Source: a bacterium
Lineage (GTDB): Bacteria; Patescibacteriota; UBA1384; CAILIB01
Length of the DNA: 64,000 bases
NCBI GenBank assembly: GCA_037131105.1
Contig: JBAXRQ010000001.1
Location: 258,039-322,038 of the forward strand
Reading direction: 5' to 3'
Shown here: piece after piece, positions 1 to 16,496 of the stretch
How positions within the stretch are numbered: position 1 is the first letter of the stretch
Layout of the letters: the number at the start of each line of letters is the position of its first letter
Notes under the pieces: generated by a model
The model's database searches: none
What the model saw: only the letters and a program-made list of their open reading frames with translations
What the model was told of the DNA's origin: nothing
Program-made: the position numbers and the translations under genes

Positions 1-17
1 TCGTCTAGCCTACGCAT

Positions 18-413
18 ATGGAGACATATTACGATCGCGTATCTGAAAATGATCCGATTCTGCCAGCTCCTGTTGTGACGTTGCCCACCCGTCGCAAGGT
101 AATGCGGTTGTCTGACCGTATCGAACTTGGTGTGCTAGTGCTTCAATACTTGCTGATCGCCCGCATGGCACTGCTGGCTGCCGGATTCGGGAGTCTGGCG
201 CCCGCCTCAGGCTTTCTGAATATCACTGGCGTTGTGGTGCGCCCGCTGTATGCAGTGTTCCCATCTATTGTGATCGGACCCTACGTTCTTGAGCCAGCCT
301 CCGCCTTCCTATTGGTGGCTCTGAGCCTTGTCCTAGCTATTCTGACTATGGTTATAGACCGTATCCGTATGCGTCGCCGGGTACTTTCCAGGACGTTGAT
401 TCCGCATATGTAA
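18..413 (+). CDS. hypothetical small membrane protein
   Basis: 131-aa ORF with 3 predicted hydrophobic helices. No recognisable motif. Confidence 0.4.
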   Translation: METYYDRVSENDPILPAPVVTLPTRRKVMRLSDRIELGVLVLQYLLIARMALLAAGFGSLAPASGFLNITGVVVRPLYAVFPSIVIGPYVLEPASAFLLVALSLVLAILTMVIDRIRMRRRVLSRTLIPHM

Positions 414-512
414 CGTTACTGTCGTATCCAATTGTCTGGACGGTTCCGCTCCTCATCGAATCTTGGAATCGCAACAAAAATACAGGCTTTGGCGACCTGT
501 CAGGCGTATTGA

Positions 513-527
513 TGTCCCCGGCTGGAC
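513..527. repeat. partial direct copy of tRNA-Arg(TCT) 3' end (att-like repeat)
   Basis: tgtccccggctggac is repeated at 513-527 and inside the tRNA at 792-806. Confidence 0.5.
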
Positions 528-539
528 ATCTCTCGTCGC

Positions 540-690
540 TCCGCTCTCAAAGGGCCCCGCTTCGCCGCTCGAGAGGTGTTAACTCGCGAACGGCCCTTTG
601 CGCTCGCATTGCTCGCTGAACCCGCCACGGGAGAACTCCCGTTCTCCCGACCCCTCTCCCGTTCGAGTCCAGCCTTAAAAACAAAACCAG
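540..690. repeat. REP-like composite palindromic element (copy E1)
   Basis: Shares cgcttcgc, ctcgctc, GC-rich hairpins and cccgttctcccgaccc with the copies at 4770, 5065, 13680, 16515, 51170, 52525 and 57757. Confidence 0.5.
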
Positions 691-790
691 CATATGCAGG
701 GGTAAGAAAAACTTTTGAGACGTATCCCGAAGGGATACTGTAGACAGGCTCCCTTGAGTCGATCAGTTTTTGCTACCCATGCGTATGCTG
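688..790 (+). repeat. fold-back element F1 (conserved core, unique 25-bp stem)
   Basis: Arms are cagcatatgcaggggtaagaaaaac and gtttttgctacccatgcgtatgctg. The core is ttttgagacgtatcccgaagggatac...ccttgagtcgatcag. The 3' arm abuts the tRNA 3' end. Confidence 0.5.
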
Positions 791-865
791 GTGTCCCCGG
801 CTGGACTCGAACCAGCGACCTAAAGCTTAGAAGGCTTCCGCTCTATCCACCTGAGCTACGGGGAC
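789..865 (-). tRNA. tRNA-Arg (anticodon TCT)
   Basis: Minus-strand sequence GTCCCCGTAGCTCAGGTGGATAGAGCGGAAGCCTTCTAAGCTTTAGGTCGCTGGTTCGAGTCCAGCCGGGGACACCA folds as a cloverleaf with a TTCGAGT T-loop. Confidence 0.9.
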
Positions 866-984
866 ACGTGGCCCTATACTACCAGAAGTAGCCTTTCATT
901 TGTACTTGTGACCTATCACCTTTACAAAACGCCTCTAATCTGGTAAAAGTATGGACGACGTAATGAAAGCCTGAGGAGAGAGAA

Positions 985-1842
985 GTGACACCTATGGTAC
1001 CGCCGGCTAGCAAGCCAAAAGAGACACTGAAGGACCGTGTCGAAAGGCTGACACGGGAACTGCGTTTTTGTGGCGAGATGCTGCTTTTTGTTCCCCACGA
1101 GATTCAAAACGCTATGCAGCGCATAATGGGCGGTGACTCTCTCACGAGAGCCATCGTTCGTAATAACGTGGCGCACGGTGTGGCGCAGGCGGTGGAAGAG
1201 CTGCTTGCCCTGGAAGAAAAGCCGAACTCAAAGGCCGTAAGAAGCCGAATGGAGGAGGTGCTGGATTATGAGATGGAGCCGGTCTTCTCGGTTCTTGAAA
1301 TCGCCAGCCGTGCCGCAAGTTTCATTTCCGCATTCCTAAAGACCGCCCTAGCCCTCCAGGATCCGTTTTTTAAAGAGGAGTGCGAGTGCAGCGCCCAGCT
1401 CCTACTCAGCCATGCCGAGGAGATCTACGGGGGCTATGCCAATCTGACTGGGGTGAGGGTCAACTTCAAATCGGAGGCGACACAGAATGTGACGGTTGCT
1501 CCAGGAAGAATTATCTTCGCCCTTGCGACGCTTCTGGGCAATGCCATTAAGGCGGCGGCCCAGTCAGAGTCGGGGTCGGGAGAGGTCTGGCTCATTGCCA
1601 CTGATGTCGAAGGCGAGCCGAATGTTAAGGTGAGCATCGTGGACAACGGCCCCGGACTTCTTCAGGACTGGGACGGTATTATCCAGAGCGCCGGCCAGCC
1701 CGACTTTCACCGCCAGCGAGGACCGGGCGGCAGGGGACAGGGCCTCCCACTGGCTGCCCATATTGTCGGCCCGACCCTTAGACTTGTTAACAATGAGTCC
1801 GGCCCCGGTGCCAACGCCAGCTTTCTGCTTCCGGCGGCGTGA
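985..1842 (+). CDS. histidine-kinase-like ATPase (HATPase_c), cytoplasmic
   Basis: N-box LGNAIKAA, G1 box VDNGPG and G2 box GPGGRGQGL. No TM segments and no clear H-box. Confidence 0.5.
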   Translation: MTPMVPPASKPKETLKDRVERLTRELRFCGEMLLFVPHEIQNAMQRIMGGDSLTRAIVRNNVAHGVAQAVEELLALEEKPNSKAVRSRMEEVLDYEMEPVFSVLEIASRAASFISAFLKTALALQDPFFKEECECSAQLLLSHAEEIYGGYANLTGVRVNFKSEATQNVTVAPGRIIFALATLLGNAIKAAAQSESGSGEVWLIATDVEGEPNVKVSIVDNGPGLLQDWDGIIQSAGQPDFHRQRGPGGRGQGLPLAAHIVGPTLRLVNNESGPGANASFLLPAA

Positions 1843-1908
1843 ACGGCGGCGATTTAGAATTTGGAGGAAACCATATGATCGGGCGTCCCCATGAGGGGGC
1901 GCCGATTT

Positions 1909-2460
1909 TTATGCCGAAACGCTTGAGAGCAGCTCGTCCCAGCTTTCGATGCGGGTAGCTAGGCCCTCGGTATTATCACCTCGGTTGTACTTTTGTCCGA
2001 AGAGGATAAGCTTCGGGACGAGACCTTTCAGGTGCTCTAGTTTTTCTATGTCGTCGTCCACAAAGACTGCCTCCTCCTTGAGTGCTCCCTGCTTGCTGGT
2101 ATCGCGGCCGACCCCAACGCATTCACAGGTGATGTCGTGTGAGCTAAGCCACTTCCGGGCCATCTCCAGGCTCTTACCAGGACGGGAAGTGATGATCCTG
2201 ACCGTTCCCATATTCTGAAGGGCAGTGATACCTTTGATTGCCCCGGGAATTTCATTCATCGATAGTACATAGCTGGGGCTGGTGCAGGCGACTTCCTGGA
2301 CGGCCCGGTATTGGCTAAGGGAGAGCAGGTCTTTTTCCACCACTGTCCGCCCGTGCATGTCCTCGGGAGGGATCTCAACTCCGAACAGCTCTCGTGAGAC
2401 GCGGATCTTCAGTGAAGCATAGTCGGCGATGACGCCGTCGAAGTCGAGGCCGATATTCAT
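1909..2460 (-). CDS. HAD-family 5'(3')-deoxyribonucleotidase-like protein
   Basis: N-terminal DFDGV HAD motif. Size 183 aa fits the NT5C-like family. Confidence 0.5.
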   Translation of the reverse strand: MNIGLDFDGVIADYASLKIRVSRELFGVEIPPEDMHGRTVVEKDLLSLSQYRAVQEVACTSPSYVLSMNEIPGAIKGITALQNMGTVRIITSRPGKSLEMARKWLSSHDITCECVGVGRDTSKQGALKEEAVFVDDDIEKLEHLKGLVPKLILFGQKYNRGDNTEGLATRIESWDELLSSVSA

Positions 2461-2539
2461 GTGGGGGATTAGGGCTGTAGATTAAGGGTAGCAAATAGCG
2501 GGGGAGGGAGCTACGGCGGCTTTTTGCTATACTCATGAC

Positions 2540-3148
2540 ATGAACAACCCCCACGCCATAGCCGATCTCTATGACCGCTTCCTTGACGACGGCTATGCCT
2601 TGCTGGCATCTGATCCGAAGCACTACCCCCTACGCCCGGTTATGGAGCGGGTGCTACGCGACTATCCTTCCCAGATACGCGGGAAGACGGTGCTTGATCT
2701 GGGATGTGGACCTGGTCTCTTAAAAGGTATGACGGATTATGACCAGTATGCCGGGGTGGATGTGTCGCAGGACATGCTGAAGGCAGCGGCCTTGCGTGGC
2801 TACTCCGAACTGGTGCATGGGGCCCTACTCGACTTCTTGCCGACCGTGTCTGACGCGTCGTATGACTCAGTAATCTGCTTCAGCGTGGCCTACTTCCTGG
2901 ATCCGGAGGAGCTGTCTGAACTGGTGGGGCATATGCAGCGGGTGGCGGGAAGGTTCTGGCTGCTGACCTTGGACAGGATACCACCGGATCTGGCTGAGCA
3001 TTACATGGATACCGAAGGGATACGGATTTACGACCATACCGGCTTGGATATTCCCGGAGCCAAGGAACGGTTTACGGTGCCTGGGTGGAAGTCGGCCACA
3101 GACGGGAAGCAGATTCCTGTGGAAGTGGTGATAGGGGTAAGGGAATAA
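2540..3148 (+). CDS. class I SAM-dependent methyltransferase
   Basis: Motif I VLDLGCGPG. Acidic residue after beta-2. Confidence 0.55.
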   Translation: MNNPHAIADLYDRFLDDGYALLASDPKHYPLRPVMERVLRDYPSQIRGKTVLDLGCGPGLLKGMTDYDQYAGVDVSQDMLKAAALRGYSELVHGALLDFLPTVSDASYDSVICFSVAYFLDPEELSELVGHMQRVAGRFWLLTLDRIPPDLAEHYMDTEGIRIYDHTGLDIPGAKERFTVPGWKSATDGKQIPVEVVIGVRE

Positions 3149-3241
3149 GGGGCGGGCTAGAAAGCAAACATCCCGCCGCTTAGCGTACTGCCAAGAGACG
3201 GGATGCGTTGATGCGTTGGGGATTTCTACGATATGGGTTCA

Positions 3242-3646
3242 CTAATGCAGTGGGGGAAGGACCTTGGTAGTGACTGAGTGCCACGTATTGCCAATGAGTT
3301 TCTGCCGTATCACTTTCGGGAGTGTTTTTGGGTCCTGCGAGAGGTCCTTATAGCGCGTCGGCCAGTGCCGCAGCTTCATCTCCGCGTCAAACCCTGTGGG
3401 AGACAGGGCGTTCATGGGGAGAAGGACGGCAGTCTCCTTGCTGCCGGCCCTGGTAACGTTTTCCAGGACGTATACGAATGTACTTTTTGTAGGGTCTGCC
3501 TCGGATGACTTGAGGCAGGTGCCCATGAGGAAGCTTGGCTCTGCAGCCTTGGCTGGCTTTCGGGCTGGTTTGCCATTTCCGCTCTGGGCGGTAACGACGG
3601 TGAAGAACAGGGCGATTACTAGTGCCGCTCTCAAACGATAAAACAT
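3242..3646 (-). CDS. secreted hypothetical protein
   Basis: N-terminal signal peptide MFYRLRAALVIALFFTVVTAQS. Confidence 0.4.
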   Translation of the reverse strand: MFYRLRAALVIALFFTVVTAQSGNGKPARKPAKAAEPSFLMGTCLKSSEADPTKSTFVYVLENVTRAGSKETAVLLPMNALSPTGFDAEMKLRHWPTRYKDLSQDPKTLPKVIRQKLIGNTWHSVTTKVLPPLH

Positions 3647-3820
3647 GGTGCGCTCCTTTGTCGGTGGGGTCTGTAGAAATCCTTACAACGCACGGAGCGA
3701 GAGGGGGTCTCAATCCGTGCGCGGTAAGGATGCATGTCAAATTACAGGAACAGTCTACGTATATCAGTAAAGTAACTGGTGTGCAATTCGGAGGGCGCTC
3801 GCGTTCCCAGCTTCCTAAGA

Positions 3821-4708
3821 TTAGGTAAGCAACAAGCCGACAATAGAAAAGAGTATTCCGATCATCTTTCTATACGCATGGTCTCGTTCTTTCAGTAGCA
3901 GATAGCTGGCGATAAAGATAAAGACGATCTTGAACGTCGTTACTGAAGATATCAGCGATACGTTGCTGGCCAAGGAACTTGCTAGCGCGAATGTGGCAAA
4001 CTGGCCGAAGCGCAGCAGTCCAAGCCAGAATATCCCCGACGTCTCAACCCTATAGTCCACCGGTCTCGACTTCCTGATATATGGCAGGGCAAAGAGCAGC
4101 GAGGCCAGAGTTTGAATACCATAGCCAACGACAAAGTAGGAGCCGATACTGCTCCCCCTTATCGCTCCTCGTTCTGCAATGAGGGCCAGGCCCAAGACCA
4201 GGGACGCTCCGAATGCGATCCAAGTATAGGGAGAAAAGCGAAGGGTTTCCTTGCTGAACCCTTTGACTGAAACGATCACCGCGCCCAGAACCAGCAGAAT
4301 CATTCCAACGGCTTGCTGCGCCGTTAGTCCTTCATGCAGAACGATTGTCGCGCCTATAATGGTAATGGGTGTGTAGAGATTGGCGATTATCGCAAACTGG
4401 GTTGCGTCAACCTCCTTCTGGCACTTAAGCGACAAGATATTGTACAGACTTTGGAATAGTCCTGCCGCTGCCATGGTCAGGATCAGGCCTACGTTTATTC
4501 CGTTTGGAAACCAGTCTCTCTCTATGAGTGCCCATATAATGCCCAGGGGTACTATGATGGCTGCCTGGGATAGTAAGGAAGCCACGGTAGGATGAAGCTT
4601 TGTTTTCTGGGCAAAAACCCGCCGCTGCAATGAGCTGGCGGTTGCAACGATAAAGTACGCTAGTAAAACAAGTTGCCAATTACTCATGTTCATAACTATA
4701 GCAAACAA
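3821..4708 (-). CDS. EamA/DMT-family transporter
   Basis: 295 aa with about 10 TM helices and a duplicated 5-TM EamA-like architecture. Confidence 0.6.
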   Translation of the reverse strand: MFAIVMNMSNWQLVLLAYFIVATASSLQRRVFAQKTKLHPTVASLLSQAAIIVPLGIIWALIERDWFPNGINVGLILTMAAAGLFQSLYNILSLKCQKEVDATQFAIIANLYTPITIIGATIVLHEGLTAQQAVGMILLVLGAVIVSVKGFSKETLRFSPYTWIAFGASLVLGLALIAERGAIRGSSIGSYFVVGYGIQTLASLLFALPYIRKSRPVDYRVETSGIFWLGLLRFGQFATFALASSLASNVSLISSVTTFKIVFIFIASYLLLKERDHAYRKMIGILFSIVGLLLT

Positions 4709-4769
4709 TCAGCGTGAGAGTTCAGTGCTTTTGACCTCTGCGGAGTAGAGGGGGACATTTCACATGCTG

Positions 4770-4940
4770 CTTCGCCGCTTTCTGCCCGAGCGCAGAAGCG
4801 CGAGCGCATTTGAGAACCCACGGTTCTCAACGAAAGCCTTTGGCTTTCTGCTCTCCTCCACGGAAACCCTCCCCGGTTAAGTGCTTCGCACCGCTTCGCG
4901 ATCGAACCTTCCGACGTTCAAGTCCCTTCCATAATTACTG
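4770..4940. repeat. REP-like composite element (copy E2)
   Basis: Contains the gagaacccacggttctc palindrome, ctcctccacggaaaccctccccggtt and gttcaagtccc. Confidence 0.5.
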
Positions 4941-5046
4941 AAGAAACAAAGAGAGGCCCCAGAAAAATTTTGAGACGTACTCCGGATGAGTTCAGTGAGA
5001 ACCTTCCTTGAGTCGATCAGTTTTCTGGGGCCTCTCTTTGTTTCTT
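4940..5046 (+). repeat. fold-back element F2
   Basis: Perfect 26-bp arms aagaaacaaagagaggccccagaaaa / ttttctggggcctctctttgtttctt flank the conserved ttttgagacgta...ccttgagtcgatcag core. Confidence 0.5.
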
Positions 5047-5064
5047 TGGTGCGCCCGGAGGACT
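5047..5064. repeat. attL-like direct copy of tRNA-Arg(TCG) 3' end
   Basis: tggtgcgcccggaggact matches 8261-8279 (tggtgcgcccggagggact) at 18 of 19 positions. Confidence 0.55.
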
Positions 5065-5200
5065 TTCACGTCGCTTCGCTCATCGGGAACCCACGGTTCC
5101 CGACGGATTTGCTAAGGACAGATAAATCCTGCCCTCCTCCACGGAAACCCTCCCCGGTTTCCGACCCTTCGGACGTTCAAGTCCCTCCGTTCTTTGACAA
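5065..5200. repeat. REP-like composite element (copy E3)
   Basis: Contains gggaacccacggttccc and cctccacggaaaccctccccggtttccgaccc. Confidence 0.5.
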
Positions 5201-5354
5201 AGCAAAAAGAGCATCCTTGGATGCTCTTTTTGCTTTGGTGCCCTGGGTGCACCTACGTTCGAACTCTTTCTAAAATGGATTGACCATTTAAGGATGGCAT
5301 ACCTAGACGCTGACTCAGTAGAGTCATCTGAAGATACGCCATCCTAGGCAAGCA

Positions 5355-6920
5355 TTATTTCAACGAGAGCGCAAGAATAGCCTCGGTGATGCGTCCAATA
5401 CTTATCGGATCGTGCCAGTCTACTTTGGTAACTGTAATCTGATGCTTTCTCCATGCGCCAATCCCTCTCTTATGATCAGCTATTTCGTCGTCGACGGTTA
5501 TGGATGCAAAGAAGGCCCGACAAAAATATTGGCGGATGATCGGGTTGGCTTTTAAAAAGGCCTTACCAACATCCAAGCTTTGAGCCAGCGCTAAGGCCCT
5601 GTCTCTTCTACCGGTGATGATAGCTAACCGTTTTTCAGCTTCGGCTATAACTTCGGTTGCCTGCGCAATGTCTTTAGCAATTCGTTTCTGGTCTTTCTTT
5701 AATAAGACTCCCGGAACCAGTTTTTCGTAGTAAGCCTGCAGAAGATTCTCCTGGGCAACCTCAAGCTTAGTAAGTCGTTGTTTCTGCTGCTTGACGTCGT
5801 CTTCGGCATAGCGTTGTTCCTCGCGTAATTCTTCATGTATTTTTTGTGCCAACTCGATATGCTCAGTCTCAGAGAATGAGAGCTTATTGAGTGTTGTAAT
5901 TACTACCTTTTCCAGTGAGTCAGCGGGGATGTAGGGTTGCGTACAACCTGCATGCTGTCGATTTATGCAGAAAAAGTAGGAGTAACGGCGTTTCGTTATA
6001 GTATGACAAAGACGACGATTGCACCTGGCACAGATAAGGAGACCAGCAAGACAGTGGAAATGCTTGCGGTCCTTACGTCTGGAGCCAGAATGACTGAGTC
6101 TAACTGCCTGGACGGCTGCGAAGACCGCGGGAGTAACAAGCGGCTGATGGTTTCCCTTATATTCCACACCGTTATAGCTGACGTAGCCGATATAGTAGCG
6201 GTTACACAGTAGGCGAGCCAACCCGCTCCTGCTTATCGGATGAGCAGGTGAGCGGTTGGTAGCTCGCATCCGAAAGCCTCGCCTAGTGAGTTCCGTGAGG
6301 AGATGCCGATCCGTGTAATCCCCGGTGGCGTAGCGTTCAAGGGCGAAGCGTGCAAAATGAGCCCTATCCGGGTCGGGGATTACCGTGCGTATTTCTCGTC
6401 GGTTTGCTCGCTCTATCACGTTAAGGTAGCCAATCGGGGCCTGGAAGGGAGTACCACCCTGCTTGGCCTTCTCAGTCGCCCCTTTCAAGGCCTCAGCCGC
6501 TAGGTTTCCACTATAGAACTCTGCGATAGTGGCCATAATGCCGTGGAGCAGTCTGCCTGAGGGGGTTTCATCGATGTTCTCCGTAACCGAGACCAGTTGG
6601 GCTCCGCCTTTTTGAATGGCCAGGCCGATCACGACGTCGTCATGGAGATTCCTCGCTAGACGATCAAGTTTATGAACAATAACGTAGTCGAAGGCCTTTT
6701 TTTCAGAAAGATCACGAAGCAACAGTTGTAGTGCGGGTCGAGCAGCCGAGCGGGCACTTTCTCCCCGGTCAACGTATTCCCTGATACTTTTAGCTCCAAG
6801 ATCCTGAGCCTTGCGTTTGCAGGCTTCCCGCTGCGCAGGTATGGAGAACCCGTCGCGGTTGGTATTGCCCTTTGTCGCCTGGTCGAGCGTAGACACTCGA
6901 AGATAGATGGCTACTTTCAT
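5355..6920 (-). CDS. large serine recombinase (resolvase/invertase N-domain + recombinase + zinc-ribbon)
   Basis: N-terminal MKVAIYLRVSTLDQ catalytic-Ser motif. 521 aa. C-terminal Cys cluster. Confidence 0.85.
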   Translation of the reverse strand: MKVAIYLRVSTLDQATKGNTNRDGFSIPAQREACKRKAQDLGAKSIREYVDRGESARSAARPALQLLLRDLSEKKAFDYVIVHKLDRLARNLHDDVVIGLAIQKGGAQLVSVTENIDETPSGRLLHGIMATIAEFYSGNLAAEALKGATEKAKQGGTPFQAPIGYLNVIERANRREIRTVIPDPDRAHFARFALERYATGDYTDRHLLTELTRRGFRMRATNRSPAHPISRSGLARLLCNRYYIGYVSYNGVEYKGNHQPLVTPAVFAAVQAVRLSHSGSRRKDRKHFHCLAGLLICARCNRRLCHTITKRRYSYFFCINRQHAGCTQPYIPADSLEKVVITTLNKLSFSETEHIELAQKIHEELREEQRYAEDDVKQQKQRLTKLEVAQENLLQAYYEKLVPGVLLKKDQKRIAKDIAQATEVIAEAEKRLAIITGRRDRALALAQSLDVGKAFLKANPIIRQYFCRAFFASITVDDEIADHKRGIGAWRKHQITVTKVDWHDPISIGRITEAILALSLK

Positions 6921-7026
6921 AGGTGACTCCTTCCGGTAAGTTACTGGTAAGTAGCCCTACTGTAGTTGGTATTCCACCTGGTCAATAAGTCATGACATAC
7001 GTTATGCAAGCAACTAAAATGAGACA

Positions 7027-7060
7027 GTAGAAAAACAGCCCAATCGGGCTGTTTTTCTAC
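7027..7060. terminator. hairpin between fic and recombinase
   Basis: gtagaaaaacagcccaatcgggctgtttttctac. Confidence 0.4.
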
Positions 7061-7095
7061 GGCTACGAATGTCTGGAAAAGATGGAGGCCCAGCC

Positions 7096-7995
7096 CTAGT
7101 TCTTTTTTGAGGTGTCGATAAAGCCAGCGCCAATCTTCCACACTCCTTTTTCCCTAAAAGCGGGAATAGTCTGCCGGGCGGCGGCATTTAAAAGCCTCGG
7201 CAGATAGATCTCATGACTTTTTGCATACTCAGCAACGTCGACTATCTCCTCACCCTTAAGATAGGTGATCCGCCGGTGAAGCGATTCCAACAGCGCTAAG
7301 TAGAGCACGCGCTCCAAGGTATCCGTTTTCTTGGTATCCCGATAATCGTGAAACGCCCGGTAGTAGGTCTTTTTCTCCTTGTTGCGGATGATGAGGATGG
7401 GGTACCCCATGCGGAGCAACTGGTAGTTAATGAGTATACGGCCGATACGTCCATTACCGTCGTTAAATGGGTGGATCGTTTCAAAATCCAGGTGAAACTT
7501 GGCGATTCTTTCCAGGAAATAGGTGGTGTGCTCGCTGGAGTGGCCCACAAGCAGATCTTCCATTAAACGCCCTATCTGCTCTGGCGCCGGGGCGATATGG
7601 GTACCGACACGCACATATTCGCCGCTCTTCCTGAATCTTCCGGCAATCGGGTCATCGATCGTGGCAATCAGCATCTGATGGAGGAAAAGGATCAGCTCCT
7701 CGCTAAGCTCCGCCTCTTGCGACTTGTGACGCACGTATTCCATGACCCGAGCCAGGTTCTTTGCCTCGTAGACCTCGCGCAAGTCAACGTCACGGGAGAT
7801 CTCCATTTCCAAGAGGATCTTCTCCGTCTCCTTAAGAGTCAGAGTAGAGTTCTCAATGGCATTGGAGTTGTAGACGCTCTCGGGAATTTCTGATTCGTCC
7901 AGTATACTAACCAATGATTCCTTGCCAATACGAAGCAGGTCGTACTGCTTCTTACGCTCCTGTAGTATGTTTTTGAGGGGGTTGGTAGTAGGCAT
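7096..7995 (-). CDS. fic: Fic/DOC family protein (adenylyltransferase-type)
   Basis: Canonical HPFNDGNGRIGR Fic motif. Confidence 0.85.
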   Translation of the reverse strand: MPTTNPLKNILQERKKQYDLLRIGKESLVSILDESEIPESVYNSNAIENSTLTLKETEKILLEMEISRDVDLREVYEAKNLARVMEYVRHKSQEAELSEELILFLHQMLIATIDDPIAGRFRKSGEYVRVGTHIAPAPEQIGRLMEDLLVGHSSEHTTYFLERIAKFHLDFETIHPFNDGNGRIGRILINYQLLRMGYPILIIRNKEKKTYYRAFHDYRDTKKTDTLERVLYLALLESLHRRITYLKGEEIVDVAEYAKSHEIYLPRLLNAAARQTIPAFREKGVWKIGAGFIDTSKKN

Positions 7996-8014
7996 AATAT
8001 ATGACTAAAGTATA

Positions 8015-8095
8015 CAATATTCACGACGTAATGTCAATATACCGTGAATATTAGTTGTTTTCGTCATATATTCACGGTATATGCGGAGTTTCTCT
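8015..8095. promoter_or_regulatory. operator-like repeats upstream of fic
   Basis: Three copies of atattcacg, two of them forming the 14-bp inverted pair tataccgtgaatat / atattcacggtata. Confidence 0.4.
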
Positions 8096-8204
8096 TCTTT
8101 TACCTCTCATAGAGTTCGATAATAAGACTGAAAAAGTATAACCTTCAGTTTAGACCTGAACAACCCTGGTGTTAATCGAACTTTTTTAACCTGATAATTA
8201 TTAC

Positions 8205-8232
8205 AAAAGAGAGCTCGATCGAGCTCTCTTTT
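8205..8232. terminator. perfect palindrome hairpin downstream of tRNA-Arg(TCG)
   Basis: aaaagagagctcgatcgagctctctttt. Confidence 0.5.
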
Positions 8233-8260
8233 GTTGTTTCTAACCTGTCAACTTAACATT

Positions 8261-8337
8261 TGGTGCGCCCGGAGGGACTTGAACCCCCGGCCTTCTGGTT
8301 CGAAGCCAGACGCTCTATCCAACTGAGCTACAGGCGC
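8261..8337 (-). tRNA. tRNA-Arg (anticodon TCG)
   Basis: Cloverleaf GCGCCTGTAGCTCAGTTGGATAGAGCGTCTGGCTTCGAACCAGAAGGCCGGGGGTTCAAGTCCCTCCGGGCGCACCA. Confidence 0.9.
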
Positions 8338-8529
8338 GAGTGAGGAACTGGCTGCCAAGCTTGCTTGGTCAGGTAGGTCCGAGCGAGTGCCTGCGTCACG
8401 TAGTGACGCGGCGCGAAGTGCTATGTATTCACCTCGCCTTCTCGACGGCCTTTACAATACCAGAACTACTCCTATTTCTCCAGGGGATGCATCTGATATA
8501 CTGGAGCTTGTCTTACCTATCCGCTCCCT

Positions 8530-9120
8530 ATGCTCCATATCCTGCGGAACCTGATCTCACATTACGGCCTCTTCGGCATGTTCGTCTCGGTGGCTATAGA
8601 GAACCTGGGGTTGCCGCTACCCACCGAGCCGGCCTACCTGGTCGGCCAGGCCCTTATCACTGACGGGTCTCATTCCTGGTGGGTGATCCAGGTCGTACTG
8701 TACCTTGGCCATACGGCGGGTGCCTGCGCCTCCTACTGGATGGGTCGTCGCATTGGTATTAAGATGAAGGGCGACCATAGCCAGTTTACCGATACCCAGA
8801 AGCGGATCGCCGGCTGGTTTGAGAAGTACGGCTATATTACGGTATTTGCTACTCGTCTTATCGGCTATGTCAGGCCCTGGAGCTCGTATGTGGCTGGTAT
8901 TGCCGAAGTGCCCTTTGTACCCTTCTTGCTACTAAGCTCAGCCGGCACCATCATCCTGAACCTTATCTGTCTGGCTTTTGCTAGCAAGTTCATCTGGTTA
9001 TGGGCCTCGTTCCCGATTGCCCGGATACTGATCACCTTTTCTTGTCTGATTGGTGTGGTCCTGCTGGCGTTCCAGGGATACAGGAAACACATGACCAAGA
9101 AGAATAAGCAGGAGGCATGA
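8530..9120 (+). CDS. DedA-family membrane protein
   Basis: SNARE-associated/DedA-like N-terminus FVSVAIENLGLPLP. Multiple TM helices. Confidence 0.55.
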   Translation: MLHILRNLISHYGLFGMFVSVAIENLGLPLPTEPAYLVGQALITDGSHSWWVIQVVLYLGHTAGACASYWMGRRIGIKMKGDHSQFTDTQKRIAGWFEKYGYITVFATRLIGYVRPWSSYVAGIAEVPFVPFLLLSSAGTIILNLICLAFASKFIWLWASFPIARILITFSCLIGVVLLAFQGYRKHMTKKNKQEA

Positions 9121-9365
9121 AGAAACAAGCCCGTCGTACGTATGAGTTTGTCGGCTGGGCCGGCATGGCAGCTATTCTGCTCGGCTATTTCCTGATCAGT
9201 TTTTCCTACCTGCAGCCGCGAGGTATCCCGTACCAGCTGCTTACCGGCTTGGGCTCGCTCGGACTGGTGCTGCATTCGTATATAAAGCGTGACTACCAGC
9301 CTCTGGTACTTAATCTGATCTGGCTGGCTATCGCCGTAACAGTTATTCTTATCGTCATCCTTTAG
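9117..9365 (+). CDS. small membrane protein
   Basis: 82 aa with 2 TM helices. ATGA overlap couples it to dedA. Confidence 0.35.
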   Translation: MKKQARRTYEFVGWAGMAAILLGYFLISFSYLQPRGIPYQLLTGLGSLGLVLHSYIKRDYQPLVLNLIWLAIAVTVILIVIL

Positions 9366-9697
9366 CCATCCTGGTCCATGGTATAGCCGATGCCATGAAC
9401 AGTACGGATGAGACGCCGACCAAAGGGTCGGTCGACTTTGTCTCGCAGATGCTTGATGTGAACGTCAACAAGATTGGAAAAGGGATTGGTGGCGTCGTCC
9501 CAGAGCTGCTCAAGGATCATTGTCCGGGTTACTACCCGGTCTTGGTTGCGCATGAGGTACTCCAAGAGGTCGAAGTCTTTGCGGCGAAGCCTGATTGGGG
9601 TGTTGCTACGGCGTACTGTTCGCCTGGCCGAATCAATTACTAGGTCTACGCAACAGATCATGGCGGAAGCTGCATGGTGGGGAGGGGGAATGAGCAT
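9362..9697 (-). CDS. stand-alone OmpR/PhoB-type winged-helix DNA-binding protein
   Basis: trans_reg_C-like sequence FDLLEYLMRNQDRVVTRTMILEQLWD...TVHGIGY. No receiver domain. Confidence 0.5.
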   Translation of the reverse strand: MLIPPPHHAASAMICCVDLVIDSARRTVRRSNTPIRLRRKDFDLLEYLMRNQDRVVTRTMILEQLWDDATNPFSNLVDVHIKHLRDKVDRPFGRRLIRTVHGIGYTMDQDG

Positions 9698-9774
9698 ATA
9701 TCATCTATGAAAATAATACGTCCTCATGCTAGTACAGAAATATTAACTTTTCATTAACTTTTTGCCTGTGTGCG

Positions 9775-10347
9775 CTACGGCAAAAACAGGGTTGTCCGGA
9801 TGACGCTCCAGTAGTGGACAATGACAACGATAAACCCAGCATTAACTAAGGGAAATATCAGCAGGTTCTCAAACCAGTGACCGGTCTCAATGCGAAGCCC
9901 CTGGAAGGGGTGCGGAGGGATGCCGAACATATGCTGGTTGGGGAACAGTAGCGGCACGCCTTCTACCGTGAGCATGTCCGCCAGTATGTGGCTCCCGTAG
10001 GCGATGGCGAAGGCAATGAAGACATAGTGCCTGCCTAGTCCCCAATACAGCGGTGCCAAGAGCAGGAGTCGATACATGCCATAGCAGACTATGCCGTAGC
10101 CCAGGAATGAGTGAGTCAGGTTACGGTGGGCAAGGAAGGGGTTCACTAGTTCGCCGCCGATATGACCGAAAGGAAGGGCGTTCCAGAGCCGGGATCCAGG
10201 CTGGTCGATGTCGGGAAGTAGTGAACCGATGCAAGAGACCACCAATACTCCCGCTAGAGAGGCGGGCTGGTAATGCGGCGAAGTAGCGATAAGAAAAGAG
10301 GCAAGCCCGGCGGTCATTCCAATGACCTGGTGGGTCTTACCGGTCAT
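9775..10347 (-). CDS. membrane-bound metal-dependent hydrolase (YdjM-like)
   Basis: 190 aa, His-rich, 3-4 TM helices. Resembles the LexA-regulated YdjM family. Confidence 0.45.
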   Translation of the reverse strand: MTGKTHQVIGMTAGLASFLIATSPHYQPASLAGVLVVSCIGSLLPDIDQPGSRLWNALPFGHIGGELVNPFLAHRNLTHSFLGYGIVCYGMYRLLLLAPLYWGLGRHYVFIAFAIAYGSHILADMLTVEGVPLLFPNQHMFGIPPHPFQGLRIETGHWFENLLIFPLVNAGFIVVIVHYWSVIRTTLFLP

Positions 10348-12101
10348 TACATTCTCTCGGGAACCGAAATACCAAGCAGGCTAAGGCCGAGCTCCAGCTG
10401 CTGCTGGGTGAGCCAGGCCAGAGTCAGCCATGACCGCTTGATAGCCGGGTCCGGCTGGTTGGCGATATGTGAGTTCTGGTAGAACCTATTGAACTCCTGG
10501 GCCAGACTGAAGAGGTGGTCGCAGAGAATGTGAGGGGCGTTACCGGCCTGGGTGTCGATGAGGACCTGGGGAAAACGGGTGAGCGACAGTATGACGGCAT
10601 GCTCAGCCTCTGTGGCAGGTGCCAACAGTCCTTCAGACGAGTTCACCTCTTCCCCGACATGCCTGAAGATCGACTTGATACGGACGGTAGTGTATACGAG
10701 GTAGGGTCCGGTCTTGCCCTCGAAGCTGACGAACTTATCGATATCAAAGATATAATCGGAAGACGAGTTGGTGCTGAGATCGCCAAACTTAAGGGCGGCC
10801 AGACCTACCTTCTCAGCAATTTCATGCTGCTCTTCTTCCGAGTAATCCTTGGCGGCTCCTATCTCGTGCAATCGCTGCAGGGCTTTCTCCTGGACCTCTC
10901 CGATGAGGTCCTGCAGCTTCATGACGCCTCCGGCCCGGGTCTTAAAAGGCCTTCCATCAGGGCCGTTCATGGTACCGAATCCTAGGTGCTGCAAGACCAT
11001 ATCCTCAGGGGCGATGCCGGTCTGGCGGGCAGCGGCAAAGACCTGCTGGAAGTGAAGGCTCTGGCGCTGGTCAGCTACTACTAGTGATCGCTTCACACCG
11101 TCAGTAGCCCGATCTAGGATGGTGGCAAGATCTGAGGTGCTATAGAGGTAGGCGCCATCTGACTTCTCAAGAAGAAGCGGAGGAAGCTCCTTACCGTCAA
11201 CGGGATGAAGGTGGACCACTAGGGCTCCTTCACTTTCGACCGCCAGGCCGCGCTGCTTGAGGTCGGCGATCATGGTGCCGATGAGGTCATGGTAATGGCT
11301 CTCACCGTTCCATAGGTCAAAATGCACGTCGAGCTTCTCCATCTGGACCTTGATGGCACTTACCGAGATATCCACGAAGTGCTGCCAGAGGGCACGGTAG
11401 CCGGGTCGTCCCTGCTGCAGCTCGTAGGTGGCCTGCAAGGCGTCTTTCTTGGCCTGCTCATTCTCCTTGCAGCGGGCGGCAGATCGCGGGTAGATGGCCT
11501 CGAGGTCGTCGAGGGTGACCGGAGACTCGGTAGGGTAGGGGCCGGTGAGCTGCTCGTCGAAGTAGGGGAGCTCCGGCTGGTCGCGGCGGATCTCGCTGAT
11601 GATCATGCCCATCTGGGTGCCCCAGTCGCCCATATGGATATCTCCCTGGATATTCGCACCAAGCAGGACGTAGAGCCGGCGCAGGCTTTCACCGATGACT
11701 GACGGCCGAAGATGGCCGATGTGCAGGGGCTTGGCTACGTTCATGCCTCCGAAGTCGACGACGGTCTTCTGGTCCTTTACATTCGTGAGAGAGGAGTAAT
11801 CGGCGTCCTTAGTGGCGAGCTTGGCCTGGTCGGCTAAGAACTGCTTGTCCAGGCGAATATTAATGAAACCGGGCCCGGCAATGTCGAGGGTGAACTCACT
11901 ACAGCCAGTGAGGGTGTCGACGACCTTCTGGGCGACCTCGCGGGGAGGCATGCCAAGGGATTTGGCGCAGGAGAGGGCGTCATTGCATTGGTAATCGGCA
12001 AGCTCCGGACGGTCGCTGGGCGTAACGCTGCCTACTTGGGCTCCTAAGCTGGCAAATGCTTCGCTAAAAAGGTTGCTGAGGTATGATTCGATGGAGTGCA
12101 T
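10347..12101 (-). CDS. argS: arginine--tRNA ligase
   Basis: 584 aa with a class-I HIGH motif (PLHIGHLR) and ArgRS N-terminal and anticodon-binding architecture. Confidence 0.9.
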   Translation of the reverse strand: MHSIESYLSNLFSEAFASLGAQVGSVTPSDRPELADYQCNDALSCAKSLGMPPREVAQKVVDTLTGCSEFTLDIAGPGFINIRLDKQFLADQAKLATKDADYSSLTNVKDQKTVVDFGGMNVAKPLHIGHLRPSVIGESLRRLYVLLGANIQGDIHMGDWGTQMGMIISEIRRDQPELPYFDEQLTGPYPTESPVTLDDLEAIYPRSAARCKENEQAKKDALQATYELQQGRPGYRALWQHFVDISVSAIKVQMEKLDVHFDLWNGESHYHDLIGTMIADLKQRGLAVESEGALVVHLHPVDGKELPPLLLEKSDGAYLYSTSDLATILDRATDGVKRSLVVADQRQSLHFQQVFAAARQTGIAPEDMVLQHLGFGTMNGPDGRPFKTRAGGVMKLQDLIGEVQEKALQRLHEIGAAKDYSEEEQHEIAEKVGLAALKFGDLSTNSSSDYIFDIDKFVSFEGKTGPYLVYTTVRIKSIFRHVGEEVNSSEGLLAPATEAEHAVILSLTRFPQVLIDTQAGNAPHILCDHLFSLAQEFNRFYQNSHIANQPDPAIKRSWLTLAWLTQQQLELGLSLLGISVPERM

Positions 12102-12106
12102 GCGGG

Positions 12107-12817
12107 CTAGCTAATACGTGTGCCGATAGTCTCGCCCTCAATGATCCGCTTGATGTTGCCATGAGTCAGAAGGTCGAAGATGATAATGGGAAGCGAATTG
12201 TCCATGGCCAGGGAGAGGGCGGCATTGTCCATTACCTTGATGTCAGAGCTGCTGAGGGCCTCGCTGAAACCAATCTGCTGCTTACGTACGGCGTCAGGAT
12301 GTGTAGCGGGGTCTTTGTCATAGACGCCGTCTACCTTGGTGGCCTTCAGTACGGTCTCGCACTCGAGCTCCAGGCCGGCGCTTACCGCGGCGGTATCAGT
12401 GGTGACGTAGGGCGCTCCGATGCCGCCGGCGATAAGTACGATCCTGTCCTTCTCCATATGTCGGATGGCCCGGCGGCGGATATAGGGCTCGGCAACGCTC
12501 TCTATCTTCAGGCGGCTCTGCAGTCTGGCTGGCTGCCCGTTGGCCTCTAGGGCGTCCACCAAGGCCATGCCGTTGATAACGGTGGCAAGCATCCCCATAT
12601 AGTCCCCGGTGGCCCGTTCGACGCCGTGGTTGGCTATGGAGGCACCGCGCATGAAGTTGCCACCGCCCACTACCACGGCTAGCTGGACGCCGGTGCTTTC
12701 GCGGGCCTCCTTCAGCTCACGTGCCAGTTTGGCGACGAACTCAGGGTCGATGCCATGGTCACGGCTGCCGGAGAACTGTTCGCCGGAGAGTTTTAGGAGG
12801 ACACGCTTCAGTGCCAT
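12107..12817 (-). CDS. pyrH: UMP kinase
   Basis: N-terminal KRVLLKLSGE and amino-acid kinase fold. 236 aa. Confidence 0.9.
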   Translation of the reverse strand: MALKRVLLKLSGEQFSGSRDHGIDPEFVAKLARELKEARESTGVQLAVVVGGGNFMRGASIANHGVERATGDYMGMLATVINGMALVDALEANGQPARLQSRLKIESVAEPYIRRRAIRHMEKDRIVLIAGGIGAPYVTTDTAAVSAGLELECETVLKATKVDGVYDKDPATHPDAVRKQQIGFSEALSSSDIKVMDNAALSLAMDNSLPIIIFDLLTHGNIKRIIEGETIGTRIS

Positions 12818-12920
12818 GAGGGAAGAGGTTAGGTATCTTTACCATAGCGGATTTGGAGGGGTATGAACAGGTTGAAGCTTTGCTTAGTTTACTTAGTTTT
12901 GCCGTCATGGTACCTTTTTC

Positions 12921-13226
12921 TTGACAAAAGAGGGAGGAATTATGGGTGCTCGGATAACGTTTGCCGTAGTGTTCGCTGTCGTCTACATGTACATGCTTAG
13001 TATCTGCATTGAGGAAGGCTTCAAGTACAAGCCTTTGAACGGCAGGCTTAGGGAGGTAGTCATTGCGGTTATGGCAGGGATAATCTCGGTGCATTTACTG
13101 GTACTGATGTCTGAACTTTTGGTAGTTGCGATAAGGCCGCGAGCATATGTCGGAGCAGCTGTCTCATGGGTCGTAGTGTACCTGCTTAGCGTATTCGGAA
13201 GCGTCTTATGGAGAAAGGCGCAATGA
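12921..13226 (+). CDS. small membrane protein
   Basis: 101 aa with 3 hydrophobic helices. Confidence 0.3.
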   Translation: MTKEGGIMGARITFAVVFAVVYMYMLSICIEEGFKYKPLNGRLREVVIAVMAGIISVHLLVLMSELLVVAIRPRAYVGAAVSWVVVYLLSVFGSVLWRKAQ

Positions 13227-13490
13227 TATTCAGATCAAAATCCCCCGTCAGCTGCGCTGGCGGGGGATTTCCTCTCTGTCTCGATATATGCAAAATATTG
13301 GGGCGGCCAGAGGGGAACGATCCCTCGATAAGAGAACCACAATCTCTTGTGTTACCACTACACTATGGCCGCCATATGTTAACCTGCCGTTCGATAATAG
13401 CCTATTCTGCAGACAAATTCCAGGGTGAGGCGGGCAGTCTCATGCCATTGGAGGGATGAGACTGCCGGCTCGGGGCGTCATGGGTTTGGG

Positions 13491-13592
13491 TGACAGAGTA
13501 GCTGTGCGGCAAGGTCCCTTGTAGTATCGTAGACCACCATTGCGCCTATCATAGCTAGACCGAATCCTCCAGCCCACAGAAATATCTTCATG
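13491..13592 (-). CDS. 34-aa hydrophobic peptide with strong SD
   Basis: AGGAGG lies 5 nt upstream of the ATG. Sequence MKIFLWAGGFGLAMIGAMVVYDTTRDLAAQLLCHPNP. Confidence 0.3.
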
Positions 13593-13679
13593 GATCCTCC
13601 TTGAATCCTGGACTAGGGCAAAGGTATCAAAAATAACCGGTTTTGTACAGGGAAAAGTGCCTACTTAGGGGGTAGGTGA

Positions 13680-16363: not shown

Positions 16364-16496
16364 GAGTGACGAATATAGATATCCCTATAAGATAAGGATA
16401 AGGGAGGCGGGCCAACGGTGTCAAACCCGGAATCTGGTGATTGTGCCTTCGGCGCTTGTGGTAGTTATTTTCTATTAAGGCGTAGACGATCTTGGC

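Follow-up and report, generated by a model that had tools for sequence, protein, structure and literature searches.

A probable minimal integrative island of a large serine recombinase and a Fic protein at the 3' end of tRNA-Arg(TCG) in a Patescibacteria genome

What is the mobile unit at the tRNA-Arg(TCG) gene of this Patescibacteria genome, where does it end, and what put it there? The gene lies in a 64,000-nt stretch of contig JBAXRQ010000001.1 (GCA_037131105.1, positions 258,039-322,038) from a member of CAILIB01, Patescibacteriota. This whole stretch is referred to as the window, and all coordinates are counted within it. The initial annotation described a 3.2-kb island, 5047-8279, bounded by an 18/19 repeat of the tRNA 3' end and forming a minimal tRNA-Arg-integrated element with a large serine recombinase and Fic as its only cargo. 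The gene content is borne out, as an ORF search of the island found no plausible ORF besides these two. The repeat is also real: TGGTGCGCCCGGAGG occurs exactly twice in 64 kb, where 0.02 occurrences are expected, and the match between 5047 and 8261 reaches ~19/20 when one deleted G is allowed. The boundary at 5047 does not stand. An 18/19 repeat is in the style of tyrosine integrases, and a serine recombinase does not leave such a repeat. Window 5242-8258 is probably a ~3.02-kb integrative mini-island that its own recombinase, LSR-521, put between the last bases of tRNA-Arg(TCG) and the native terminator.

8261..8337, minus strand: tRNA-Arg(TCG), intact (ARAGORN; Rfam tRNA, 73.3 bits)
8259..8266, no strand: tRNA-proximal core copy TTTGGTGC (tRNA sense GCACCAAA); L001 identity starts at 8260 and L003 identity ends at 8266
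8203..8258, minus strand: island P' arm (AATGTTAAGTTGACAGGTTAGAAAC), then the island-borne perfect terminator hairpin 8203-8234 (sequence, hairpin search)
8009..8082, minus strand: fic promoter TTGACA-17-TATACT at 8037-8009 (11/12 promoter match), and three ATATTCACG/CGTGAATAT operator half-sites at 8017-8025, 8043-8051 and 8068-8076 (repeat search)
7096..7995, minus strand: class II Fic protein, 299 aa (Pfam Fic 2e-21; FICD alignment; structure model; Foldseek matches)
7027..7060, minus strand: intrinsic terminator hairpin between fic and the recombinase gene (hairpin search)
5355..6920, minus strand: large serine recombinase LSR-521, 521 aa (resolvase, recombinase and zinc-ribbon domains)
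5242..5280, minus strand: island P arm, in tRNA sense AGAAAGA-GTTCGAAC(5264-5257)-GTAGGTGCACCCAGGG-CA-CCAAA
5234..5241, no strand: distal core copy TTTGGTGC, the true far boundary of the island (sequence repeat and comparative junctions)

The ends of the island are marked by the 8-nt core TTTGGTGC, found at the 3' end of tRNA-Arg(TCG) and again at 5234-5241. The island thus lies at the 3' end of a tRNA that is kept intact, with direct repeats on either side, and these repeats are a short crossover core (8 nt shared, flanks unrelated) and not a long block of identity. The distal copy is 190 nt nearer to the recombinase gene than the 5047 repeat, and it is to this copy that the comparative junctions map. 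Base composition gives no clear island signal, with a GC content of 47-57% inside and 50-56% outside. The palindromic terminators noticed earlier are perfect hairpins (7027-7060 and 8203-8234), and two further perfect hairpins are found at 5198-5237 and 4941-5046.

The junctions come from a second element at the same CCA site. On both sides, contigs of sample ERZ27300165 match the window at 100% identity, and they diverge exactly at 8260-8266, where this element sits, and the arrangement of the window is found also in sibling sample ERZ27300174 and in run SRR7053528. This makes the CCA site a live point of integration, occupied by the second element in one sample and free of it in the siblings. 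The element has its own recombinase of 512 aa (LSR-512, L001), which abuts the tRNA. Its distal end (L003) matches window 5234-5280 at 96% identity over 47 nt and joins directly onto the P' sequence of the island, with no hairpin or module in between, which places the island end at 5241 and not at 5047. LSR-512 is only 28% identical to LSR-521, yet the P arm of its element is near-identical to that of the island, which insertion by LSR-521 does not account for. Two unrelated recombinase families thus target the same tRNA end in one organism.

The initial annotation had pointed to empty tRNA-Arg sites in other genomes as a way to recognize the insertion. This comparison gave the presence and absence of the second element between sibling samples, but no empty site for the island itself, which is carried by 4/4 sources of the organism and is identical in all samples. 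ArgRS-anchored scans of genome and metagenome contigs for close relatives returned only relatives of at most 52% identity, from other phyla, and an exact look-up of the EamA neighbor returned no record. When the neighboring DedA gene was used as the anchor, the closest homologue was 60% identical; in that relative, tRNA-Arg(TCG) is followed directly by a hairpin and an inverted T-arm copy, without LSR or Fic. An unoccupied tRNA-Arg(TCG) site is known from a distant relative only. No circular or attP form of the island was seen, and the island P arm had 0 matches in a scan of viral contigs.

Beyond the distal core copy, two tRNA-linked modules follow outside the island.

5047..5237, minus strand: module 1, from the native terminator hairpin (5198-5237) to the tRNA-end copy
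5173-5188: inverted T-arm copy of module 1
5065-5172: structured core of module 1
5047-5064: direct copy of the tRNA-Arg 3' end in module 1, the repeat of the initial annotation
4742..5046, minus strand: module 2, older and degenerate, with the long hairpin 4941-5046
4915-4929: inverted T-arm copy of module 2
~4766-4914: core of module 2
~4742-4765: decayed 3'-end copy of module 2

These modules measure ~115-300 nt, stand behind a tRNA or tmRNA gene, and follow one plan: a terminator hairpin, an inverted T-arm copy, a conserved multi-hairpin core, and a direct copy of the tRNA 3' end that runs through CCA and is followed by the original terminator. In the core, which has two or three hairpins with co-varying stems, the sequence elements are CGGRAAACC...GGTTTYCCG, a linker rich in purines (GAGGARG), and GGRAACC-GTG-GGTTYCC. 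The core is common to the modules, and the ends match each host tRNA. In the window, the module also occurs behind tRNA-Arg(TCT), Gly, Pro, Val and the tmRNA gene, all five without an island, and it was found in two other genomes at tRNA-Asp (L086) and tRNA-Glu (L186).

Could module 1 nevertheless belong to the mobile unit, so that the island runs from 5047 to 8279 as first proposed? The 18/19 repeat is well above chance, and the tmRNA islands of Dehalococcoides, which have a serine recombinase, carry 20-bp repeats of the 3' end of the gene (PMC3146451). However, the same kind of repeat, with the same module, stands behind the five other genes named above, and behind tRNA-Glu, with no recombinase island between; the second element ends at the P arm without a module; the 5047 copy has host-type (attB-like) and not element-type spacing; and a second, more decayed module lies beyond. 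This reading is very unlikely. The boundary at 5047 is not confirmed because the TTTGGTGC copy at 5234-5241 fits the junctions and the 5047 copy ends a separate repeated module. The module is an older, independent tRNA-linked structure, separate from the island.

Several known kinds of element were considered for the module and rejected. A dispersed REP-like palindrome does not fit, as the palindromes are confined to the modules. The scar of an island of the LSR-521 type does not fit either, as CCA runs straight into the hairpin and the spacing in the distal copy is of the host type. The lack of an Rfam match and the small size of the module speak against an intron of group I or II and against a known ribozyme. 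Rfam searches at the gathering threshold found only tRNAs and tmRNA in the whole window, and a search of 4600-8500 with E up to 5 gave only hairpin noise in 4740-5240. Viral contigs scanned for the core motif gave 0 matches. MAFFT misaligned the stems, which differ in length, so that RNAalifold yielded no usable consensus, and a hand-made helix table was used instead. G-T and A-C mismatches number 6 and 3, respectively, which does not fix the functional strand. The module is apparently undescribed and would be more novel than the island, whose type is already known. A tentative reading, held with less than even confidence, is that it belongs to a class of tRNA-specific miniature elements of Patescibacteria not described before. 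Such an element would either be integrative and non-coding or be a structured RNA, and it would target the 3' ends of tRNAs or mimic them. Its inverted T-arm may be the segment that matches the target, and under the same reading the module would renew a spare attachment site where recombinase islands pile up.

The question of what put the island in place leads to LSR-521, which lies at the distal end and reads outward. The serine recombinase call at 5355-6920 was correct. The protein has a full-profile N-terminal resolvase domain (PF00239, 3.9e-31, residues 3-156, with the motif YLRVSTLDQ), a recombinase domain (PF07508, 1.5e-06) and a zinc ribbon (PF13408, 4.4e-11), the last two both above gathering scores. 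With this architecture, LSR-521 would be the enzyme of an attP x attB recombination. Its best NCBIfam matches are CcrB, CcrC and XisF, all far under cut-off; LSR-521 is not a Ccr, because it scores 115.9 bits against a CcrB equivalog cut-off of 900. The closest homologue is 66% identical and the closest Fic 76%, which gives no hint of a recent transfer.

Homologues at 60-66% identity are prophage integrases on Saccharimonadales/Patescibacteria contigs. Prophages that carry them and are identical to each other are found in different flanks, and all diverge right after '...CCA', 170-270 nt beyond the LSR stop. Most of these homologues stand at the end of a prophage-like region of 15-40 kb that also encodes a terminase, a ParB-methyltransferase and an S24 repressor. 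The island could on this basis be the fixed remnant of a larger Patescibacteria prophage, no longer autonomous, with an integrase and one accessory gene left and the recombinase perhaps inactive or domesticated. In keeping with this, the island has no transfer function and does not vary across samples, and the ORF search found no recombination directionality factor or excision factor encoded in it, which makes its present-day mobility uncertain. Against it, neither island arm is damaged, the LSR ORF is not truncated and encodes all three domains, and a second, independent mini-island of two modules (AbiEii and LSR) exists at tRNA-Asp. Decay from a prophage is thus rather unlikely, though a serious alternative.

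This parallel island (L086) is ~3.8 kb long, with AbiEii as cargo and an LSR 64% identical to LSR-521. It has the order of parts seen at tRNA-Arg(TCG): tRNA-CCAA, 24 nt plus terminator, cargo, LSR, GTTCGAAT-16-CG-CCAA, native hairpin and module. Its shared block is 9 nt. A second such island points to small cargo islands as a recurrent type and not a single accident.

Site-specific insertion by LSR-521 is the reading to which the arms of the two islands also point. On the host side, the B arm is the segment of the tRNA from the T-loop to the discriminator, GTTCAAGT-11 nt-CA. A T-loop-like box, GTTCGAAC, lies 16 nt from CA in the island P arm, compared with 11 nt in the tRNA, and this +5 geometry is repeated in L086, so that box and proposed crossover are 16 nt apart in each P arm and 11 nt apart in each tRNA. 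In serine integrases, the zinc-ribbon motif of attB is shifted 5 bp inward relative to attP (PMC3783163). Judged from the letters of the sites, the element-side box, 5 bp farther out than the tRNA T-loop, would match this known large serine recombinase geometry. The shift is seen on the tRNA-side arms of two islands; B' is without a recognizable box, and the P' box is ~3 bp off perfect dyad symmetry. On the P' side, L086 has the same layout and shares a CAGGTTW box at +17 to +23. In the prophage relatives, the GTTC-to-CCA arms are 24 nt and not 29 nt, so the +5 rule is demonstrated in the two islands only.

In the proposed mechanism, recombinase dimers would bind attP through the P arm (GTTCGAAC-16 nt-CA) and the P' arm (CCAA-ATGTTAAGTTGA-CAGGTTAG). 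They would also bind attB through the T-loop of the B arm (GTTCAAGT-11 nt-CA) and through a B' arm formed by the A-rich terminator arm. Strand exchange would then take place at a dinucleotide within the common GCACCAAA core, most likely the CA of C72 and discriminator A73 (8264-8265). The tRNA would stay intact after integration because the island provides its last bases and its terminator hairpin. The hairpin at 8203-8234, brought by the island, now serves as the tRNA-Arg(TCG) terminator.

The cargo is a Fic protein with the canonical active-site motif HxFx(D/E)GNGRxxR, present as HPFNDGNGRIGR, as initially annotated; 25 homologues all share H174, F176, D178, G179, N180, G181, R182 and R185. 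The initial annotation had suggested either a Fic antitoxin or an inhibitory helix within Fic. The helix was found: S43-N-A-I-E47-N48 (SNAIEN, aa 43-48), a motif of the (S/T)xxxE(G/N) type in the N-terminal part of the same polypeptide, aligns with TVAIEG of FICD and is invariant in the 25 homologues. No antitoxin was found, with no ORF of at least 20 aa plausibly placed in 7996-8260 or 6921-7095. A class I Fic/Doc toxin-antitoxin module (VbhT-VbhA or Doc-Phd type) was accordingly rejected; Fic is not half of such a pair because the inhibitory motif sits inside Fic itself. By its motifs, the protein is a predicted class II, auto-inhibited enzyme of the AMP-transferase type. A C-terminal winged helix is predicted at aa ~250-288 (structure model; Foldseek). 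The protein matches the PADLOC models PDC-S04 (5.6e-37) and SoFic (2e-30) and resembles Fic genes catalogued as candidate phage-defense genes.

Upstream of fic, the operator-like triple repeat is confirmed: ATATTCACG occurs three times in the window (8017, 8043 in reverse complement, and 8068), compared with 0.25 expected, and the first half-site falls in the promoter spacer. The three operators probably belong to the regulation of Fic itself, which would repress its own strong promoter by placing the predicted winged helix on the three candidate ATATTCACG sites. The same palindromes, which flank the fic promoter, might instead be taken as signs that the recombinase acts locally, as an invertase or resolvase, to switch the expression of fic, with the tRNA adjacency incidental; the JGI names of several LSR-521 homologues indeed read 'DNA invertase Pin-like'. 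However, LSR-521 has integrase-type recombinase and zinc-ribbon domains, its homologues mark element ends, and the palindromes are 9-15-nt operator-like sites that overlap the promoter and not ~50-bp inverted pairs of recombination sites. No inversion of the 7996-8082 segment was found in 4/4 assemblies. A switch of this kind is extremely improbable, and an island inserted by LSR-521 remains the preferred reading.

The island is a clean minimal case, one recombinase and one cargo gene, of an LSR that uses the universally conserved T-loop-to-CCA end without harm to the tRNA. tRNA genes are conserved natural landing sites, and such enzymes may therefore be of interest for genome engineering. Patescibacteria genomes of ~1 Mb keep integration hot spots that stack small defense-like cargo, Fic here and AbiEii in a relative. 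The module, if its reading is true, would be a new non-coding family confined to a poorly known lineage. It would also call for caution in annotation, as repeats of tRNA 3' ends in these genomes would not mark island boundaries.

Among known systems, the P4-like islands likewise target a tRNA 3' end, regenerate the tRNA and stack in tandem. They use a tyrosine recombinase and are bounded by identity blocks of 15-60 bp, and no tyrosine recombinase is present in the island described here. The Listeria A118/LI, Bxb1, phiC31 and TP901-1 integrases have the same resolvase, recombinase and zinc-ribbon architecture, an int gene beside attP and a very short shared core. As on the tRNA-side arms of the two islands, the outer box of phage and ICE integrases sits 5 bp closer to the center in attB than in attP (PMC3783163). 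The usual targets of phage and ICE serine integrases are protein-coding genes, which are disrupted by the insertion within them (PMC5357655), whereas in this case a tRNA is targeted at its very 3' end, the T-loop appears to act as the outer box, the gene is left intact, and the element is only 3 kb long with no phage or conjugation genes.

The ssrA islands of Dehalococcoides, with the CcrB-like integrase DsiB, are inserted by a serine recombinase at the tRNA-like 3' end of tmRNA, in tandem arrays with variable cargo (PMC3146451). In these arrays, islands and integrase-less remnants lie in tandem downstream of tmRNA (PMC3146451). Their integrase stands beside tmRNA on the opposite strand, in a six-gene module with a second small recombinase, and the 20-bp repeat starts from the T-loop. 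In the island, the LSR is at the far end, co-directional and the sole recombinase, the repeat is 8 bp, and the crossover would be at the discriminator; it is thus not an ssrA integration module of the Dehalococcoides type. The second element (LSR-512) and a homologue at tRNA-Phe (L192) are nearer to that arrangement.

SCCmec, with CcrA/CcrB, shares with the island an insertion at the 3' end of an essential housekeeping gene that is kept, a cargo without transfer genes, and CcrB as best NCBIfam match, but the island works with a single recombinase, targets a tRNA and not rlmH, and has a host of a different phylum. The cargo itself has its counterparts in human FICD/HYPE, Bacteroides BT_2513, Shewanella SoFic and PADLOC PDC-S04, which have the same Fic fold, active site and N-terminal inhibitory (S/T)xxxE(G/N) helix, with a winged-helix-like C-terminal domain of the SoFic type. 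The island Fic differs from the class II proteins of solved structure in its ~25% identity to them and in being the sole cargo of a recombinase island.

The tRNA-Arg(TCG) island is a real integrated element. The locus has the following features, and no further plausible ORF was found in the island interval:

8261-8337, minus strand: tRNA-Arg(TCG), scoring 73.3 bits in Rfam
8203-8234, same strand: perfect hairpin with 16-bp arms, downstream of the tRNA
7096-7995, same strand: Fic gene (299 aa), after this hairpin
7027-7060, same strand: hairpin terminator between the Fic and recombinase genes
5355-6920, same strand: large serine recombinase LSR-521 (521 aa), with Resolvase, Recombinase and Zn_ribbon_recom domains
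5257-5264: GTTCGAAC box of the island-side P arm of the attachment site

The island boundary is set by three independent assemblies that carry sequence 100% identical to the window. In sample ERZ27300165, contig L001 corresponds to window 8260-19120 and has a different element to the left of the tRNA, while contig L003 corresponds to window 1-8266 and beyond that point holds other genes, namely a response regulator, a small ORF and an HTH gene. The overlap between both break points is exactly TTGGTGC (8260-8266). The tRNA is joined straight to the island, as in the window, in L177 (sibling sample ERZ27300174) and L002 (run SRR7053528). Thus, a second element, element 2, is present or absent precisely at the tRNA-Arg CCA end. 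The distal 47 nt of element 2 are 96% identical to window 5234-5280 and adjoin the tRNA-proximal sequence of the island with nothing between, so 5242-5280 is an element-type arm and TTTGGTGC at 5234-5241 repeats the core found at 8259-8266. This junction has ACTTGAGAAAG at its start, whereas the predicted circle junction of the island is ATTTTAGAAAGAGTTCGAACGTAGGTGCACCCAGGGCACCAAATGTTAAGTTGACAGG. The island is therefore ~3.02 kb (5242-8258). The initial annotation had placed its end at a repeat of the tRNA end at 5047. That repeat is real, since the 15-mer TGGTGCGCCCGGAGG occurs in 64 kb only at 5047 and 8261 (0.02 copies expected), but the limit lies at the second core copy and the element 2 junction. 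For the island, the empty-site junction would read ...GGATGCTCTTTTTGCTTTGGTGCGCCCGGAGGGAC. Because no empty site, circular form or excision factor was found for the island, its present-day mobility is unproven.

Element 2 was recovered in two parts, its middle being unassembled:

L001:1-2863 and L003:1-1143 (ERZ27300165): element 2, inserted at window 8260-8266

Element 2 encodes a 512-aa serine recombinase (LSR-512), an M23-peptidase-like ORF, a response regulator and an HTH gene. LSR-512 is only 28% identical to LSR-521. Its ORF is convergent with tRNA-Arg and overlaps the tRNA 3' end, and a 56%-identical homologue on an IMG/VR contig adjoins tRNA-Phe likewise. This placement resembles the ssrA islands of Dehalococcoides, where a CcrB-like recombinase beside the tmRNA leaves 20-bp repeats, arrays in tandem and remnants that lack an integrase (PMC3146451). 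Bearing a P arm like that of the island despite its distant recombinase, element 2 may be a composite of two elements.

The arms of the attachment site differ in spacing. In tRNA sense, the island arm reads GTTCGAAC-GTAGGTGCACCCAGGG-CA-CCAAA and the tRNA-Arg arm reads GTTCAAGT-CCCTCCGGGCG-CA-CCAAA, so that the T-loop or T-loop-like box lies 16 nt from CA in the element versus 11 nt in the tRNA. The same spacing is found at L086, a locus of a different genome, with GTTCGAAT-16-CG on the element versus GTTCGAAT-11-CG in tRNA-Asp. In the Listeria integrase studied by Rutherford et al., the zinc-ribbon-domain motif occupies bp 16-24 of the attP half-site and bp 11-19 of the attB half-site, a 5-bp inward shift (PMC3783163). 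By this analogy, the T-loop is probably the zinc-ribbon box of the LSR-521 site, and crossover would occur at or next to C72 and the discriminator, within the 8-nt shared core. CAGGTTW at +17 to +23 is common to the P' arms of the window island and L086. Weak points of this reading are a P' box that departs by ~3 bp from perfect symmetry and a host B' arm, the A-rich arm of the terminator, in which no box is recognisable.

Database labels for homologues 49-63% identical to LSR-521 are Candidatus Saccharimonadales or Patescibacteria group. The host is likely a Patescibacteria (CPR) member, with a genome of ~1 Mb. Most members of the recombinase family close a prophage-like region and face outward; such regions also hold terminase, ParB-methyltransferase, HNH and S24-repressor genes. 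Identical prophage copies occur in differing flanks and diverge directly after a ...CCA end, 170-270 nt past the recombinase stop; example ends are GTTCCAGACCCGAGTGTTCCGCCA| and GGGGTTCTAGACCGTGATGCTCAGCCA|. The arms of these prophages are 24 nt, a further weak point of the proposed site geometry. At L086, an island of ~3.8 kb has a 64%-identical recombinase and, as cargo, a DUF6922/AbiEii pair. The order is tRNA-Asp-CCAA, 24 nt and the island's own terminator, cargo, recombinase, GTTCGAATGGAAGTATATCCAGCCCGCCAA, native hairpin, inverted T-arm, core, and a direct copy of the tRNA-Asp end, a layout that corresponds to the window architecture at another tRNA. The 39-kb 'viral' contig IMGVR_UViG_3300033402_000781 (loci L174/L175) has two recombinases of this family, 26 kb apart and 86% identical in nucleotides. 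Both are followed by the same GTTCCAGACCCGAGTGTTCCGCCA end, which suggests tandem prophages. One copy has a ~4-kb insertion between recombinase and end, and a long CTGT tandem run lies at L174:8200-8300.

The cargo protein Fic carries the HPFNDGNGRIGR motif. Its residues S43-N-A-I-E47-N48 align with the inhibitory TVAIEG of human FICD and are invariant among 25 Fic homologues. The protein therefore belongs to class II and inhibits itself, and the island has no antitoxin gene. The Fic gene was correctly named as cargo at the outset; its class is what needed correction, to class II with an internal inhibitory motif. The AlphaFold model has a mean pLDDT of 74, with a C-terminal strand-helix-helix-strand-strand unit (aa 250-288) near 90. 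The Foldseek matches are FICD, BT_2513, Dde_2494 and SoFic. The strongest library matches are the PADLOC candidate defence models PDC-S04 (5.6e-37) and SoFic (2e-30). With more than 8000 proteins at E<=1e-30, the family is very large and conserved; the best matches among those listed are 64-76% identical and labelled Patescibacteria, Deltaproteobacteria and Elusimicrobia. Upstream of fic is a near-consensus predicted promoter (TTGACA-17-TATACT, 11/12), with one copy of ATATTCACG within its spacer and two just upstream, in palindromic arrangement. Because the island encodes no other DNA-binding protein, the most economical reading is that fic would be autorepressed through the predicted winged helix of Fic.

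The repeat at 5047 is the direct tRNA-end copy that closes a separate, tRNA-linked module. In the window, this pattern lies behind tRNA-Arg(TCT), tRNA-Gly, tRNA-Pro, tRNA-Val, the tmRNA gene and, if the island is left out, tRNA-Arg(TCG). It is absent behind tRNA-His and tRNA-Arg(CCT). The modules are as follows:

510-770: module
4742-5237: two tandem modules at tRNA-Arg(TCG), 5047-5237 and 4742-5046, the outer one decayed
13688-13939: module
16504-16678: module
51168-51390: module
52521-52682: module
57717-57900: module
L086:8792-8986: module at tRNA-Asp
L186:17183-17347: module at tRNA-Glu of another genome, compact (115 nt), with an ordinary terminator next

Each module opens after the CCA with a perfect terminator-like hairpin and 9-21 nt that start TGT or TGG. 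Next, the T-loop and 3' T-stem of the local tRNA recur in inverted orientation, and a core of 90-170 nt follows. The 3' end of this tRNA, CCA included, then recurs in direct orientation, usually ahead of a further terminator. The ends match the individual tRNA, and the core is common to the copies. Features in common are a GGGTCGG lead, hairpin H1 (CGGRAAACC/GGTTTYCCG), a GAGGARG linker, a variable hairpin H2, hairpin H3 (GGRAACC-GTG-GGTTYCC) and, often, GCGAAGCG. A profile of the modules matches three Patescibacteria-like genomes (window, L086, L186), always after a tRNA or the tmRNA gene, and has no match in control loci of other phyla (~2.4 Mb). Five other tRNAs of L086 lack the module, and within the window the GGRAACC...GGTTYCC palindromes are confined to modules.

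Single-sequence folds (z-scores -3.6, -0.7 and -2.3) place a closing helix of inverted T-arm and direct copy around three hairpins, with the acceptor 3' strand and CCA as a free tail. Stem sequences vary between copies, H2 being wholly different in each, and a hand-made helix table holds 196 Watson-Crick pairs, 6 G-T, 3 A-C and 5 other. No Rfam family matches the modules, and no sigma-70-like promoter was found in 4600-5240. The layout fits a small insertion that brings its own terminator and displaces the original tRNA end. A module may act as RNA or as single-stranded DNA, and could be a functional RNA, an element without an integrase, or a scar left by an unknown element family. Its distal copy and the next hairpin re-create a host-type attachment site.

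A small repeat, CTGATCGACTCAAGG...ACGTCTCAAAA (~55-80 nt, copies 68-82% identical), lies at 4956-5031, 648-770 and 34570-34645 inside the loops of long hairpins that resemble terminators, with the look of an insertion. In a distant relative, the spacer from DedA to tRNA-Arg(TCG) (L190:9500-9720) has two copies of a ~35-nt repeat, cgcataccacttcgcggtgtacggcgctcgttcgctc.

Downstream of the tmRNA gene, a 1.1-kb segment with one ORF (51532-52521; 329 aa, no Pfam match) lies between two modules. It ends at ~51391 in a P-arm-like GTTCCAAG-16-CA-CCA, and the CCACCA, hairpin and TTGG stretches of the flanking modules (42 nt) are identical. This locus (51168-52682) may be a recombinase-less island at a module's spare attachment site, a hint that module-made copies of the site are in use.

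Other recombinase genes occur in the window, listed here with features near them:

48271-49875, plus strand: third large serine recombinase (534 aa), ~26% identical to LSR-521, 2.8 kb from the tmRNA 3' end
45929-46903, plus strand: IS30-like transposase (HTH_38/rve_3), near the 534-aa recombinase
21076-21594, minus strand: 172-aa ORF, 33% identical to LSR-521 residues ~150-278
20100-20174, plus strand: tRNA-Arg(CCT)

The 172-aa ORF is apparently a recombinase fragment, ~900 nt beyond tRNA-Arg(CCT). The 24 nt from the CCA of this tRNA to its hairpin bear a loose likeness to the island P' arm.

The functional reading of the initial annotation largely holds; what changes is where the island ends, what the repeat is and which class of Fic it encodes. 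The tRNA-linked module is the most surprising part for a specialist and merits its own study. Serine integrases are generally reported inside genes, which they disrupt, and it is tyrosine integrases that use tRNA 3' ends (PMC5357655). There is a precedent for serine recombinases at tRNA-like ends in the tmRNA of Dehalococcoides (PMC3146451), and the island is therefore a further case of a known type, one whose attachment-site logic is neat.
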